Source: a virus
Taxonomy: Duplodnaviria > Caudoviricetes
Virus record (IMG/VR): IMGVR_UViG_3300020387_000009
Coordinates: 1-37,190 of that record
Reading direction: 5' to 3' (one strand)
DNA: 37,190 nt
Position 1 is the stretch's first letter. Each line of letters opens with the position of its first letter. This document shows, piece after piece, positions 4,541 through 26,157 of this stretch. The position numbers were made by a program, and so were the translations under genes. The notes under the pieces are model-generated. The model searched no databases, was not told the DNA's origin, and was given only the letters and a program-made list of their open reading frames with translations.

Positions 4541-6186
4541 TGGCTACTTCACAACTTTATAATGGGGACGGCTCAACAACTGCTTTTACTTTTACTGTTC
4601 CTTATATTAATACTACTGACATTAAAGCTACAATAGGTGGTGTCAGTACAACTGCTTTTAGCGTCAATGGTACTACTGTTACGTTTAACTCAGCGCCTGC
4701 TTCAGGTACTAATAACATAAAAATCTTTAGAGACACTAATAATAGTACTATTGAAGCTAATTTTCAGTCAGGTAGTGCTTTACGTGCTGTTGATTTTAAC
4801 GATAACTTTACCCAACTACTTTACGTTACCCAAGAATCTACTGACGGTTCAGATACAGCTATTACTGATTCTGCTGCTGCTTTAGCTGCAGCCACTACAG
4901 CGTCAACTAACGCTACGAACGCTGTAAATACGGCAAACACAGCTTCTGCTACAGCTACAGCAGCTCAAAATGCAGTTTCTGCAGCTGCATTCTTCACTCC
5001 TATCCTTGCACTAGCTAACTTACCTACTAGTCCTGCTGATGAAGACCGCGTAGAAGTAACTAATTCAACTGGTGTAGAAAGTAATTCTTCTGTTTCTACT
5101 GTACCTGCTGGTTTTGTTGGATCTACTGACTTAACCGTACGATTACAGTACAACTCATCTACTTCTAAATGGGTCTTCCAACAATATTTTGCTGCAGATC
5201 CTGAATCCCGTTATGTAGCTAAATCTGGCAGCACTATGACAGGAGCACTTACTCTATCGGGTGCACCTACTTCTAACCTACATGCTGCAACAAAGGCTTA
5301 TGTTGATAGTGAGGCTGTTAGCACTGTACTTGAGTTAACAGATGCCGTACAAGCTCCAACTAGCAATACCATTGTGTTTGAAGCCGGATCTAGTGGCGGT
5401 AACCCATCTAATATGGTAACCGGTACATATAGTAGAAGTTTTGGTGTTGCTCCGACCCTTTTGTTCTTTAGTTTCGGATTAGGAAATTCGCAATATGATG
5501 ATAATTTAAATTCTTCAGTTATCAGCGTTGGTGATTCAATTACTTTTGAATGGCCAACAGGTGGTTCTACTAATAACTCTAGGACTTTTACTTCAACTAT
5601 TAATGCAATCACAACCTTTACTGACCAAAATAGGCGTTTAATTACAATTAGTGGTATTGGTAATTTTAGTGTTCCTAATGAATCAACTAGTACTTTAAGA
5701 ATTACACACAGTTCATTTACTAACGGCTTAGAACCAGTTTTAAACAATCAAGTTCTACGTTATAAAACAGCAACTTCTAAATGGACTGTAGCTTCTGTCA
5801 CAGAGCCAGACCCTGATACTGCTCTTACTGACGTTGCACAGACCTTTACTGCTGCTCAACGCGGTGAAGTAACTACTCTTACATCTGCAGCTACGATCAC
5901 TATTGACTTTGGACTGTCTAATAACTTTACCTTAACTACTGGTCACAGCGCTATTTTATTTGCTAACCCTACGACAGAAGTGGCTGGACAAAGTGGGTCT
6001 ATCTTTATTGTCCAAGGTTCAACTACATGTGCTGCTCCTACATGGGGCAATCAATGGTACTTTAGTGAAGGTACAGCACCAGCATTAACTGGAACTACTG
6101 GTAAAATTGCACGAATTGATTATATTGTGCAGGAAGCAGGGAAAATTCATGCAGTTGCAACTGATAACCTTGCCATTACTACTTAA
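4540..6186 (+). CDS. tail fibre protein, T7 gp17-like
   Basis: N-terminal T7 tail-attachment domain (YNGDGSTTAFTFTVPY...IFRDT...F..GS.LRA.DFNDNF.QLLY), Ala/Thr coiled coil, AATKAYVD fibre motif. Confidence 0.9.
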   Translation: MATSQLYNGDGSTTAFTFTVPYINTTDIKATIGGVSTTAFSVNGTTVTFNSAPASGTNNIKIFRDTNNSTIEANFQSGSALRAVDFNDNFTQLLYVTQESTDGSDTAITDSAAALAAATTASTNATNAVNTANTASATATAAQNAVSAAAFFTPILALANLPTSPADEDRVEVTNSTGVESNSSVSTVPAGFVGSTDLTVRLQYNSSTSKWVFQQYFAADPESRYVAKSGSTMTGALTLSGAPTSNLHAATKAYVDSEAVSTVLELTDAVQAPTSNTIVFEAGSSGGNPSNMVTGTYSRSFGVAPTLLFFSFGLGNSQYDDNLNSSVISVGDSITFEWPTGGSTNNSRTFTSTINAITTFTDQNRRLITISGIGNFSVPNESTSTLRITHSSFTNGLEPVLNNQVLRYKTATSKWTVASVTEPDPDTALTDVAQTFTAAQRGEVTTLTSAATITIDFGLSNNFTLTTGHSAILFANPTTEVAGQSGSIFIVQGSTTCAAPTWGNQWYFSEGTAPALTGTTGKIARIDYIVQEAGKIHAVATDNLAITT

Positions 6187-22995: not shown

Positions 22996-23552
22996 TGGCA
23001 AGAAACACATTTGTAACTCCAGAGCCTGTTGTCCTTGATGGATACCAGGCTGTAATGCAACCGTCTAAGTTTGGTTATTCATTGAAGGCTATTGTTGACG
23101 ATGAATTGATTCATAAACTAGAAGATGACCGTGCTGACCTCGTCAAATGGTGCGAGTCAAAACTAAAAAATCCAAAGCGTTCAGTACAAAGACCTGAACC
23201 TTGGGAAGAGGTATCAGAAGGTAAGTACATTGTTAAATTCAGTTGGAATGAAGAGGCTAAACCTCCCATCGTTGACACTGAAGGGACACCAGTCACTGAT
23301 ACACGAACACCTATCTTTTCTGGAAGCCAAGTAAAACTGGCGTTCTATCAAAAACCTTATGTCCTTAAAGATCAAACCACCTACGGTACATCACTAAAAC
23401 TTGTTGGTGTACAGGTCGTTACTTGTAACGGTCAAGCTGGTGTTGATACAGGTGACATGGCTCCTGCTGATGTTGCTGATCTATTCGGTAAAACACAAGG
23501 GTTCAAAACAAGCGAACCTAATGTAACCACTCACGATGAGGATGACTTTTGA
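22995..23552 (+). CDS. ssb: ssDNA-binding protein (gp2.5-like)
   Basis: GSQVKL...PY....GTSLKLVGVQV; acidic tail ending in F. Confidence 0.9.
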   Translation: MARNTFVTPEPVVLDGYQAVMQPSKFGYSLKAIVDDELIHKLEDDRADLVKWCESKLKNPKRSVQRPEPWEEVSEGKYIVKFSWNEEAKPPIVDTEGTPVTDTRTPIFSGSQVKLAFYQKPYVLKDQTTYGTSLKLVGVQVVTCNGQAGVDTGDMAPADVADLFGKTQGFKTSEPNVTTHDEDDF

Positions 23553-23740
23553 CCACTGTTATTGAAGACGGCGGACGCACAAACATCTACGCAAAAGAAC
23601 CACCAATGCAAGTTATGGACGTAACAGAAACACAAAACGAACGAGCTGAAAAGCTCAACGGACGCCTGGCAATGCTAGGTGTCATGGCTGCGCTTGGTGC
23701 GTACGCCTTGACTGGACAAATTATCCCAGGAGTTTGGTAA
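23549..23740 (+). CDS. hli: high-light-inducible protein
   Basis: AEKLNGRLAMLG...TGQIIPG. Confidence 0.95.
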   Translation: MTTVIEDGGRTNIYAKEPPMQVMDVTETQNERAEKLNGRLAMLGVMAALGAYALTGQIIPGVW

Positions 23741-23850
23741 TGCCAATGGTCAACGGTAAAAAGTATCCTTATACCAAAGCTGGTATGAAGGCTGCTGCTA
23801 CTGCAAAAAAGAAAAAGCCTACTAAAAAACCTGCTGGTAAAAAATACTAA
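23740..23850 (+). CDS. 36-aa Lys-rich microprotein (not in ORF track)
   Basis: MPMVNGKKYPYTKAGMKAAATAKKKKPTKKPAGKKY; TAATG coupling on both sides. Confidence 0.7.
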   Translation: MPMVNGKKYPYTKAGMKAAATAKKKKPTKKPAGKKY

Positions 23851-23999
23851 TGGCTAAGCCTGGATTGTATGCAAACATCCACGCCAAACGCAAACGTATT
23901 GCTGGTGGTAGTGGTGAAAAAATGAGAAAGCCTGGGTCTAAAGGAGCACCCACGGCTGCTAACTTTAAACGCTCTGCTAAAACTGCTAAAAAAGCTTAA
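23850..23999 (+). CDS. 49-aa basic microprotein (not in ORF track)
   Basis: MAKPGLYANIHAKRKRIAGGSGEKMRKPGSKGAPTAANFKRSAKTAKKA. Confidence 0.75.
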   Translation: MAKPGLYANIHAKRKRIAGGSGEKMRKPGSKGAPTAANFKRSAKTAKKA

Positions 24000-24009
24000 T
24001 TAACAACAC

Positions 24010-24354
24010 ATGAAATCTATTATCGCTGCCGGTCTCCTCCTCGGCATGGCACATGGTGCCGCAATTGCTGGTCCCTACGTGAATGTAGAGTCTAACTCTG
24101 CAACTTCTGGGTCTGATTATCTCGGCTCGGTTATTGACAACCATATTGGTTATGAAGGGTCTAACTGGTATATCCAGGGGGGACCTAGTATCGTCGCTCC
24201 CGATTCAGGAGATACCTCCGTAGAGCTTTCAGGGAAAGCAGGTGGATCCGTTGGATTGACGGAGAAACTCGGAGCCTACGGTGAAGTGTCATTCATTACG
24301 GGTGATGAGGATAACAGCTACGGCACAAAAGTAGGTCTGAAGTACAACTTCTGA
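24010..24354 (+). CDS. small outer-membrane beta-strand protein
   Basis: Signal peptide, amphipathic strands, C-terminal KVGLKYNF beta signal. Confidence 0.75.
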   Translation: MKSIIAAGLLLGMAHGAAIAGPYVNVESNSATSGSDYLGSVIDNHIGYEGSNWYIQGGPSIVAPDSGDTSVELSGKAGGSVGLTEKLGAYGEVSFITGDEDNSYGTKVGLKYNF

Positions 24355-24389
24355 TTTACTAATTGTGGTGGGTGGGTTGGTTTTTAATT

Positions 24390-25469
24390 ATGAGTTCTAT
24401 TTCAATTAAACAGCCTGCCTCTCAAACCTGGGAGGACTTCTGTTCGTGGGTGACGTCCACAAATAACCGTCTTTACGTCGGCTGGTTCGGAACACTGATG
24501 ATTCCGTGTTTACTAGCTGCTGCTATTTGTTTTATTATGGCGTTCATTGCAGCGCCACCCGTCGATATTGACGGAATTCGTGAGCCTGTCTCAGGTTCAT
24601 TGATGTATGGAAATAACATCATCTCCGGCGCTGTCGTGCCTTCCAGCAACGCCATCGGTCTGCACTTGTACCCTGTGTGGGAAGCAAGTTCTATGGACGA
24701 ATGGCTTTATAATGGCGGACCATACCAATTGGTCGTCTTCCACTTCTTGCTCGGTGTCCTTTGCTATATGGGACGTGAGTGGGAACTCAGTTACAGATTA
24801 GGGATGAGGCCTTGGATCTTTGTTGCATACTCTGCGCCAGTCGTTGCGGCGGCTGCTGTCTTCCTTATTTATCCGTTTGGACAAGGTAGCTTTTCAGACG
24901 GTATGCCTCTTGGCATTTCCGGTACTTTTAATTTTATGCTGGTTTTCCAAGCCGAGCACAACATACTCATGCACCCCTTCCACATGTTGGGAGTTGCTGG
25001 TGTTTTTGGGGGTGCATTGTTCTCAGCTATGCATGGATCTCTGGTCACATCTTCGCTTATTCGTGAAACAACTGAAGATGTATCTCAAAACAATGGTTAC
25101 AAATTTGGTCAAGAAGAAGAGACCTACAACATCGTTGCAGCGCACGGCTATTTTGGTCGGCTTATTTTTCAGTACGCTAGTTTTAACAACAGTCGTTCTC
25201 TCCACTTTTTCCTTGCCGCTTGGCCTGTTGTTGGCATTTGGTTTACCAGCCTTGGTGTGTCTACGATGGCATTCAACCTAAATGGTTTTAACTTTAATCA
25301 ATCAATTGTCTCCCGTGATGGTCATGTGATTAATACATGGGCTGACATCCTCAACCGAGCTGGTCTTGGTTTAGAGGTAATGCATGAGCGTAATGCACAT
25401 AACTTCCCTCTTGATTTGGCTGCTGTTGATAGCAATCCTGTTGCTCTCACAGCCCCAGTAATCGGCTAA
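24390..25469 (+). CDS. psbA: photosystem II D1 protein
   Basis: [38 protein letters not shown]. Confidence 0.99.
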
Positions 25470-25475
25470 GAAACG

Positions 25476-25678
25476 TACGTTCATCTATGTATAACATTAC
25501 ACTTACAACTGACGCCGCTGTCATTCTTCGTGACGCATTACGTGTCTACAAAGAACGATGGCCTGGTGGTGATCCAGAAGAACAAGAATCAATTGATTAC
25601 TTGGCATTGCAATTCACCAAGATTGTATTGGAATCTTACATAGACGCATAACATCTGATCATGGAACGGGGATCAGGT
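25476..25678 (+). ncRNA. glutamine-II (Downstream-peptide) riboswitch with expanded P2 loop
   Basis: CGTTCA...GACGCA...TGGAACGGG; P2 TCTATGTA/TACATAGA; pseudoknot ATCTGATC/GATCAGGT; DUF4278-type peptide follows. Confidence 0.75.
25487..25651 (+). CDS. 54-aa ORF nested within the riboswitch (not in ORF track)
   Basis: MYNITLTTDAAVILRDALRVYKERWPGGDPEEQESIDYLALQFTKIVLESYIDA; looks like a helical hairpin. Confidence 0.65.
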   Translation: MYNITLTTDAAVILRDALRVYKERWPGGDPEEQESIDYLALQFTKIVLESYIDA

Positions 25679-25694
25679 ACTAAAGGAATTAATC

Positions 25695-25841
25695 ATGCCA
25701 CAAGTCGAACTTCGTCAACGTGTCCGTGAACAAAAAGCTGCTCAACGTGAGCAACTCCTTAAGTATCGAGGCGTTTCTTACCTTAAAAACTCAATAAAAT
25801 TAGATGGCATTCAGATCTGGGCTGGAGGAGAAGGTTGCTGA
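25695..25841 (+). CDS. DUF4278-like peptide (not in ORF track)
   Basis: MPQVELRQRVREQKAAQREQLLKYRGVSY...; YRGxxY motif; AAGGA SD. Confidence 0.75.
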   Translation: MPQVELRQRVREQKAAQREQLLKYRGVSYLKNSIKLDGIQIWAGGEGC

Positions 25842-26157
25842 CCTTCTCGTCGAGCTAGGTGTCAAGTATGAATACGAAAGCACAAAAGTTCCGTATGTAA
25901 TCCATCATTCCTATACGCCAGATTTCGTTCTACCGAATGGGATCTGGCTGGAATGTAAGGGATACTGGGATAGTGCTGACCGTCGCAAAGTTAAAGCAGT
26001 TAAGGAACAGAATCCTGAGATTGATTTGCGTATGGTTTTTCAAGCACCCTTCAATAAAATCAGCAAAAAATCAAAGACAACATACGCCAAATACTGTGAA
26101 AAACTTGGCATCCCATGGACATCATGGGCAAATATTCCACTCAACTGGTTGATATGA
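25804..26157 (+). CDS. endonuclease I / Holliday junction resolvase (gp3)
   Basis: FRSGLE, YTPDF, LECKG. Confidence 0.95.
   Translation: MAFRSGLEEKVADLLVELGVKYEYESTKVPYVIHHSYTPDFVLPNGIWLECKGYWDSADRRKVKAVKEQNPEIDLRMVFQAPFNKISKKSKTTYAKYCEKLGIPWTSWANIPLNWLI

Follow-up and report, generated by a model that had tools for sequence, protein, structure and literature searches.

Comparative sequence analysis indicates that a marine cyanophage carries a glutamine-II riboswitch aptamer whose stem encloses a complete protein-coding gene. The element lies in the window, by which we mean the whole 37,190-nt stretch of DNA analysed here (record IMGVR_UViG_3300020387_000009, a linear virus record of 37 kb with a completeness of 81%). 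Judged from its relatives, it is a real, conserved and covarying member of a known aptamer class that standard tools miss, and its architecture was not found in print. We read the arrangement as a nitrogen switch with two outputs, in which glutamine would shut the nested gene and free the downstream peptide, and we assign this reading a probability of roughly 0.55.

The gene set of the window is T7-like, with hli, an outer-membrane-protein-like gene, psbA, the aptamer element and endonuclease I, then primase/helicase and polymerase ORFs (features of the element in Table 1). Two ORFs are named RNA polymerase-like and SSB-like from their sequences, and psbA is named from its sequence and from 80-88% identity to host Photo_RC genes. 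Because of these genes and its relatives, the virus is identified as a marine cyanopodophage. The hli, outer-membrane-protein-like and psbA genes form with the riboswitch cassette an island (23549-25841) flanked by SSB-like and endonuclease I genes; the corresponding island precedes the capsid gene in S-SBP1, S-TIP37 and P-SSP7. Elsewhere in the window, weak Rfam matches (isrG, MIR7526) at 4864-4976 fall on a GCT-rich repeat within a long structural gene and are most likely coding repeats.

Table 1. The gene-enclosing aptamer and adjacent genes, in positions of the window.
Feature	Position	Strand	Basis
psbA (photosystem II D1)	24363..25469	+	ORF list; 80-88% identity to host Photo_RC genes
Aptamer core 5' strand, C1-A6 (CGTTCA), non-coding	25478..25483	+	kept in 79/79 protein-first loci
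5' arm of ORF-enclosing stem, TCTATGTA, holding the nested ATG	25484..25491	+	folding; covariation
Nested 54-codon gene, PHROG 628 family	25487..25651	+	PHROG profile, relatives, dN/dS, predicted fold
3' arm of enclosing stem, TACATAGA, encoded by nested-gene codons 51-53	25637..25644	+	sequence; covariation
Linker strand C17-G18-C19-A20 (CGCA)	25645..25648	+	sequence mapped on PMC6698751
Distal helix, ATCTGATC (25653-60) with GATCAGGT (25671-78), loop ATGGAACGGG	25653..25678	+	Rfam match; covariation
AAGGA, likely ribosome-binding site for the downstream peptide	25683..25687	+	sequence
Downstream IF17-like peptide gene with YRGxxY (YRGVSY)	25695..25841	+	ORF; weak DUF4278 match

The psbA stop codon ends 8 nt upstream of the aptamer and 17 nt upstream of the nested ATG, and no sigma-70 promoter of its own was found upstream of the element. 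Its initial description as lying directly downstream of psbA holds for the window; among 103 elements with the ORF in the loop (hereafter filled elements), psbA is the commonest upstream gene (61/103) and not the sole one. Where filled elements have enough flank, the gene that follows is endonuclease I (13) or capsid (39). Contigs from RNA runs, which carry no strand, level or start, span the nested ORF in all four runs compared (three studies). One of them corresponds to 25104-26070 with zero differences and a poly-A loose end at its terminus, and no joint excising exactly the nested ORF was seen in these contigs.

The first-pass annotation had claimed all elements of the Downstream-peptide (glutamine-II) motif, and each was found where it had been placed, within 25478-25678. 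The conserved core (C1, G2, U3, U4, C5, A6, C17, G18, C19, A20, A33 and G35-G42) is complete when mapped on the published structure (PMC6698751), with A33 at 25661 and G35-G42 reading GGAACGGG at 25663-70. We follow the naming of that structure, in which the ORF-bearing stem is P1 (labelled P2 in the first-pass annotation), the distal helix is P2 and the core is PK (PMC6698751). P1 is here an 8-bp stem, TCTATGTA/TACATAGA, that closes a 145-nt loop. P2 has 8 bp and closes the GGAACG loop of the pseudoknot, and is not an E-loop helix; its loop, ATGGAACGGG (A33, G35-G42), pairs back onto C1-C5. In the crystal structure, only C1-C5 pair with G36-G40, and A6 is coplanar with C17 and unpaired, so the first helix is CGTTC/GAACG (PMC6698751) rather than the CGTTCA/TGGAACG proposed earlier. 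The glutamine binding site is formed by C1 and G2, and the ligand is contacted or stacked on by G18 and C19 (PMC6698751). In the window, the GCA of the linker strand (G18-C19-A20) is the final codon (Ala) of the nested gene, and the stop codon comes next.

The motif GGAACGGG is present in 103/103 filled elements, and the distal helix is paired in 100-103 of them at positions 1-6, with at least four pair types at positions 2-6. Within the window, no match to glutamine-I (RF01739) was obtained at E ≤ 5, and the AGTA...GAA E-loop helix between GACGCA and GGAACG is absent from the element. A search started from the protein returned 80 viral loci (redundant contigs included), of which 79 were complete, and both aptamer halves were present in 79/79. 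A single match to the spaced core pattern is present in the window, and 0/100 shuffles contain one; together with the two halves in all 79 loci, this rules out a chance match of the aptamer pattern.

Rfam model RF01704 matches the element only at 25633-25678 (model positions 9-60), with 28.9 bits against a gathering score of 33. In place of RF01704 on a loop-deleted sequence, we used an insertion-tolerant model (R1) built from 25 short-loop phage aptamers plus four with long loops from a distant subfamily, in which columns of the ORF were treated as insertions. As the first-pass annotation had anticipated, a covariance model recovered the element: R1, which is lenient toward long insertions by construction, aligned it end to end (25476-25679) with the ORF as an insertion, at 58.8 bits (E about 5e-17, E-values being rough). 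R1 detected 8/8 filled loci of a test set at 48.6-62.2 bits and had no match in the seven test loci with free-standing homologues, and at the RF01704 threshold 0/8 filled loci and 4/4 empty type-II alleles pass. We class the element as a variant of RF01704 rather than a plain member because only its 3' half scores, under threshold, while R1 gives the full-length match.

For covariation of the enclosing stem, all fetched loci were pooled and those with this ORF family kept, yielding 103 distinct elements with 86 distinct proteins; stem pairs 1-2 were set by the scan patterns and left out of the count. The third pair, which no scan pattern fixes, is T:A in 58 elements, C:G in 40, G:C in 2, T:G in 2 and C:A in 1. 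This pair, with its three Watson-Crick types, is kept in 102/103 elements across ~155 nt, against a maximum of 84 in 5000 permutations, which take no account of kinship. In a phylogeny of the ORF interior, the 5' base of the pair changes 13 times, its 3' base 12 times and the pair state only 14 times. A tree-corrected sign test on supported branches was borderline (6 contrasts, 4.9 the same way on average and 0 opposite; median p 0.0625). The 3' base of the pair is also the third position of codon 52. When this codon specifies Leu, a 5' T goes with TTA/CTA (14/14) and a 5' C with TTG/CTG (22/22), the silent base thus tracking a non-coding base ~155 nt upstream in 36/36 cases. Ile at codon 52 is ATA in 41/41, and ATA is a minority at the remaining Ile codons. 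Covariation in homologous loci, put forward as a check of the stem when it was first described, is therefore present, and by this comparative evidence the enclosing stem is under selection.

The long-range stem is predicted with a probability of 0.97 within 25470-25700 and of 0.50-0.86 in longer windows, and exceeds 0.5 in 75/103 elements. Random synonymous recoding of the ORF interior reduced the mean stem probability from 0.66 to 0.21 (lower in 22/24 of the 54-codon set). The region as a whole is not more stable than its shuffles (z only -1.2). RNAalifold, given 25 elements aligned with MAFFT, missed the long-range stem and gave no clear conserved structure inside the ORF; in that alignment, two subfamilies are shifted out of register by a one-base indel. 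The missing stem in this consensus, the stem's prediction without ligand and the Rfam score under threshold are all as expected if the element were a dead or ligand-independent relic, its glutamine sensing broken by the insertion and its stem left to dampen the nested start codon constitutively. We hold this to be very improbable: the non-coding CGTTCA and the GGAACG are kept in 79/79 loci picked by protein alone, the distal helix covaries freely and the Asp-Ala codons are GAC GCA in 87/87 (partly fixed by scan patterns). The long form very probably retains its aptamer fold under selection.

The sequence confirms that the 145-nt loop carries the 54-codon ORF first noticed there, with its ATG in the 5' arm of the stem and its last codons spelling the 3' arm plus GACGCA. 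By its conservation, this ORF is a real gene under purifying selection. The frame is kept in relatives, as the first-pass annotation would have it, with a median dN/dS of 0.116 (codons 4-49; 87 distinct sequences, 509 non-independent pairs). The protein matches PHROG 628, a family without an assigned function (E 8.1e-7, residues 2-50), and is annotated as gp32 in the cultured phage S-SBP1. Its close relatives in the protein collection number 28, and 104 cluster representatives match it at E ≤ 0.001. The PHROG 628 match, the 28 relatives and the dN/dS exclude a spurious ORF. The protein is modelled by AlphaFold as a hairpin of two helices with a WxGG turn (pLDDT 90), for which uncharacterised cyanophage proteins were the only fold matches (TM 0.8-0.9). 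Searches of the PDB gave no match at E ≤ 0.001 (best Z 7.8, generic hairpins), those of Pfam and NCBIfam no match and that of the Atlas hypothetical clusters only; nor did the 54-aa helical hairpin match a nuclease. That the gene follows psbA in phages, as it does in many Synechococcus, hints at a photosystem-linked role. One filled element (L549:401-560) has a nested ORF with an in-frame internal deletion (42 codons, WxG turn gone) and both aptamer halves intact; the deletion could be an assembly error.

An unbiased scan with the type-II 3' half alone gave 120 matches, of which 111 were kept after removal of 9 with a gapless distal helix shorter than 5 bp; we estimate that ~1800 stored viral stretches carry this half. 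Among the 111, the stem spans ≤30 nt in 92, 31-100 nt in 2 and >100 nt in 16, and one is truncated. All 16 long-span elements contain the PHROG 628-type ORF family. Other cargo was not found in type-II spans of 105-135, where the two matches were a deleted copy of a PHROG 628-type ORF and a chance match, or in spans of 190-220. Two of the 91 distinct matches of a 140-170 scan were also chance matches, having neither ORF nor helices.

PHROG 628 homologues are present in 44/301 Synechococcus-family genomes, with 1-3 copies per host. In the best 30 of these host loci, none of the homologues is flanked by both aptamer halves and none has an NtcA-like site upstream (0/30). In 17 of the 30, the free-standing homologue lies within ~1.4 kb behind a same-strand psbA; the genomes are related and these are, therefore, not 17 independent cases. 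The short-loop type-II pattern occurs in 167/301 Synechococcus-family genomes. Two long-gap patterns gave 19 and 38 host matches, and 0/30 of those fetched had both stems, a result to be read as "not found" rather than "absent" because it covers 30 matches, with 27 others outside it. One viral locus (L462:2501-2974) has the two components side by side: a PHROG 628-type gene, with a DNA polymerase gene upstream, ends ~25 nt before a short-loop glutamine-I riboswitch (RF01739, 50.5 bits) that is followed by a YRG peptide. It is a possible precursor of the nested layout.

Empty alleles with an 11-12-nt stem-loop occur in S-TIP37 and P-SSP7, both cultured, and in MedDCM-OCT-S04-C24; the allele of cultured S-SBP1 is filled. 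In a further empty allele (L180), the flanks, distal helix, peptide type and endonuclease gene are nearly as in the window. The empty loop of S-TIP37 (L544:1483-1536) reads TCC-CATTG-GGA and resembles both ends of one filled subfamily, and some empty alleles may, to go by this loop, have arisen through loss of the ORF. Filled and empty alleles with common flanks (L180, S-TIP37, MedDCM-S04-C24) are what one would see if the loop were a tolerant site where a tightly packed operon can take up one more small gene; the aptamer would then persist for the sake of the downstream peptide, and effects on the nested gene would be unselected. The equivalent loop of type-I-like phage aptamers holds unrelated ORFs (PHROG 504, 6471, 13397), and the gene is free-standing in 30/30 host loci and in the five myovirus loci examined, where the gene is present and the aptamer absent (5/5). 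Further, in 4/103 filled elements the nested ATG lies 9-11 nt in, partly beyond the stem. A passenger would, however, be expected to bring its own initiation signals. The ATG instead sits in the arm, at stem offset 3-6, in 99/103 elements, and a Shine-Dalgarno-like signal, detected with a probe motif, precedes the nested gene in 0/103 and the downstream gene in 63/103. In 100/103, the ORF also extends across the 3' arm and onto the pocket strand, and in 88/103 its stop immediately follows GCA. We consider a tolerant cargo site unlikely.

The aptamer is followed by a YRGxxY peptide gene, as first described, and its DUF4278 label falls under the Pfam cut-off (PF14105, 16-17 bits against 25.3); the peptides behind accepted empty alleles score equally low. 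A YRG-type peptide follows 102/103 filled elements. In the window, its ORF (25695-25841) is extended to 48 codons and runs, in another frame, over the opening 38 nt of the endonuclease I gene (25804-26157); relatives of the peptide before capsid genes are 17-38 aa long.

Under the two-output reading, ribosomes would enter the nested gene at low glutamine and melt the sensor. The nested gene has no Shine-Dalgarno sequence and would probably be entered by ribosomes that re-initiate after terminating at the upstream stop, 17 nt before it. High glutamine would stabilise the coaxial P1-PK-P2 fold, bury the nested start codon and block re-initiation, and the downstream IF17-like peptide would be ON, as in the host type-II switch, which is ON with ammonium (PMC6212724). 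The first-pass proposal that aptamer folding and translation of the nested ORF are mutually exclusive is supported by their overlap, the last codon GCA being G18-C19-A20 of the pocket: a ribosome finishing the ORF must unfold the binding pocket, and the two states would thus exclude each other on one molecule. Pairing of the leader (including C1-G2) with the downstream ribosome-binding region is predicted at -7.6 kcal/mol for natural and -5.7 kcal/mol for shuffled combinations of the two (77 combinations, 0/300 shuffles), and this better natural pairing fits peptide release upon ligand binding and the ON behaviour (PMC6212724). A glutamine-II aptamer made of two pieces still binds glutamine, the cut having been placed in the linker and not in the P1 loop (PMC6698751).

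Several observations count against the two-output switch. The leader-to-RBS duplex of the window allele is only 4 bp, the enclosing stem of some relatives is down to 3-4 contiguous pairs, and one longer folding window gave 0.50 for the stem and 0.02 for the distal helix. The same gene also stands without the aptamer in hosts and myoviruses. Moreover, because the enclosing stem is predicted without ligand, glutamine may contribute little to the burial of the start codon. The nested ORF could also be an input rather than an output, with ribosomes on psbA and the ORF resetting the aptamer in the manner of a leader peptide, so that production of the peptide would require both high glutamine and slow upstream translation. 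Such gating agrees with an upstream stop 8-12 nt before C1 in 94/103 filled elements, whatever the gene, and with termination of the nested ORF on the pocket strand; yet a similarly short distance is common in empty alleles too, and the nested protein is under purifying selection and also exists without the RNA. We regard translational gating as quite unlikely and retain the two-output switch as the preferred reading.

Phage glutamine riboswitches as such have been reported (PMC9004378, PMC9964418, PMC9602691, PMC5473149), and another report describes glutamine riboswitches in hosts only (PMC12379486); a gene inside a glutamine aptamer was not found described in this literature. In a 2017 survey, cyanophage genomes yielded two glutamine aptamers, and riboswitch use by phages was concluded to be rare (PMC5473149). 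The transcriptome paper on S-SBP1 reports transcription, with no passage on gp32 or a riboswitch in the sections covered (PMC7885011). A search of an alignment file of PMC2864571 for four strings characteristic of filled elements gave no match, a result weakened by the gaps within the rows of that file. The glnA alignment of that study leaves room for loops well over 100 nt, with ~50-nt loops in the part examined (26 rows); its rows may include a type-I member with a long loop, and the study's Additional files 1, 3 and 7 may comment on long loops (PMC2864571). The gene-enclosing form makes up 16/111 sampled type-II 3' halves and is missed at the Rfam threshold (0/8). If regulation is as predicted, the controlled gene would be part of the aptamer, one ligand would have two opposite outputs and a T7-like phage would read host nitrogen beside its photosynthesis genes.

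A broader scan, with type-I and type-II labels assigned by a rough rule that mislabels a few short elements, showed a likewise two-peaked loop length for type-I-like phage aptamer pairs. The 38 looped-out ORFs scanned match PHROG 504 (26), PHROG 6471 (4), PHROG 13397 (2) and, in type-II elements, PHROG 628 (4), with no match for 2; 504-type and 628-type profiles show no similarity. Viral type-I-like core pairs (within L024-L143, e.g., L036, L083, L031 and L098) have one or both stems with a 50-69-codon ORF. GGAG stands ahead of many of the second cores, 10 nt upstream of the nested ATG, and may serve as a ribosome-binding site. The type-I-like cargo is unrelated to PHROG 628, which suggests that the nested layout arose or was refilled more than once. 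We tentatively propose, at somewhat less than even odds, that a host nitrogen sensor was turned into a reusable cyanophage gene cassette in which one glutamine-binding event would turn the looped-out gene off and the next gene on. Such a cassette would let the virus balance a factor tied to the photosystem against an inhibitor of glutamine synthetase, depending on host nitrogen; the arrangement would have evolved separately in two aptamer classes whose cargo is unrelated, and would be invisible to standard RNA searches.

The element shares with the glutamine-II riboswitch (RF01704, PDB 6QN3) the full conserved core, the P1-PK-P2 layout and a YRG/IF17-like peptide downstream (PMC6698751, PMC6212724, PMC2864571). 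In ordinary glutamine-II aptamers the P1 loop has a few to ~20 nt, whereas here it has 145 nt and is coding. Unlike them, the window element has a start codon in the stem and a last codon on the pocket strand and sits in a phage operon, 8 nt after a stop codon, and the filled form was not found in the host genomes searched (301 Synechococcus-family genomes; 30 matches fetched). Type-I-like (glnA, RF01739) cyanophage aptamer pairs are similar in having a 50-69-codon ORF in the equivalent stem, the ATG in the 5' arm, covarying arms and a YRG-type context, but differ in aptamer type, in having two cores and in their cargo (PHROG 504, 6471 or 13397). Group I introns whose peripheral loop carries a homing-endonuclease ORF, such as T4 td, are also folded RNAs that loop out a whole gene. 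There, too, translation competes with RNA folding; the intron is, however, a ribozyme with a mobile nuclease and without metabolite sensing, whereas the gene here encodes a helical hairpin. In mgtA/mgtL-type leaders, translation of a short ORF that senses ribosome speed remodels the sensing RNA, and fungal TPP aptamers are closed by long-range pairing of distant segments with an intron as the spacer. Both differ from the present element, where a conserved protein gene, found also on its own, forms the looped-out segment.
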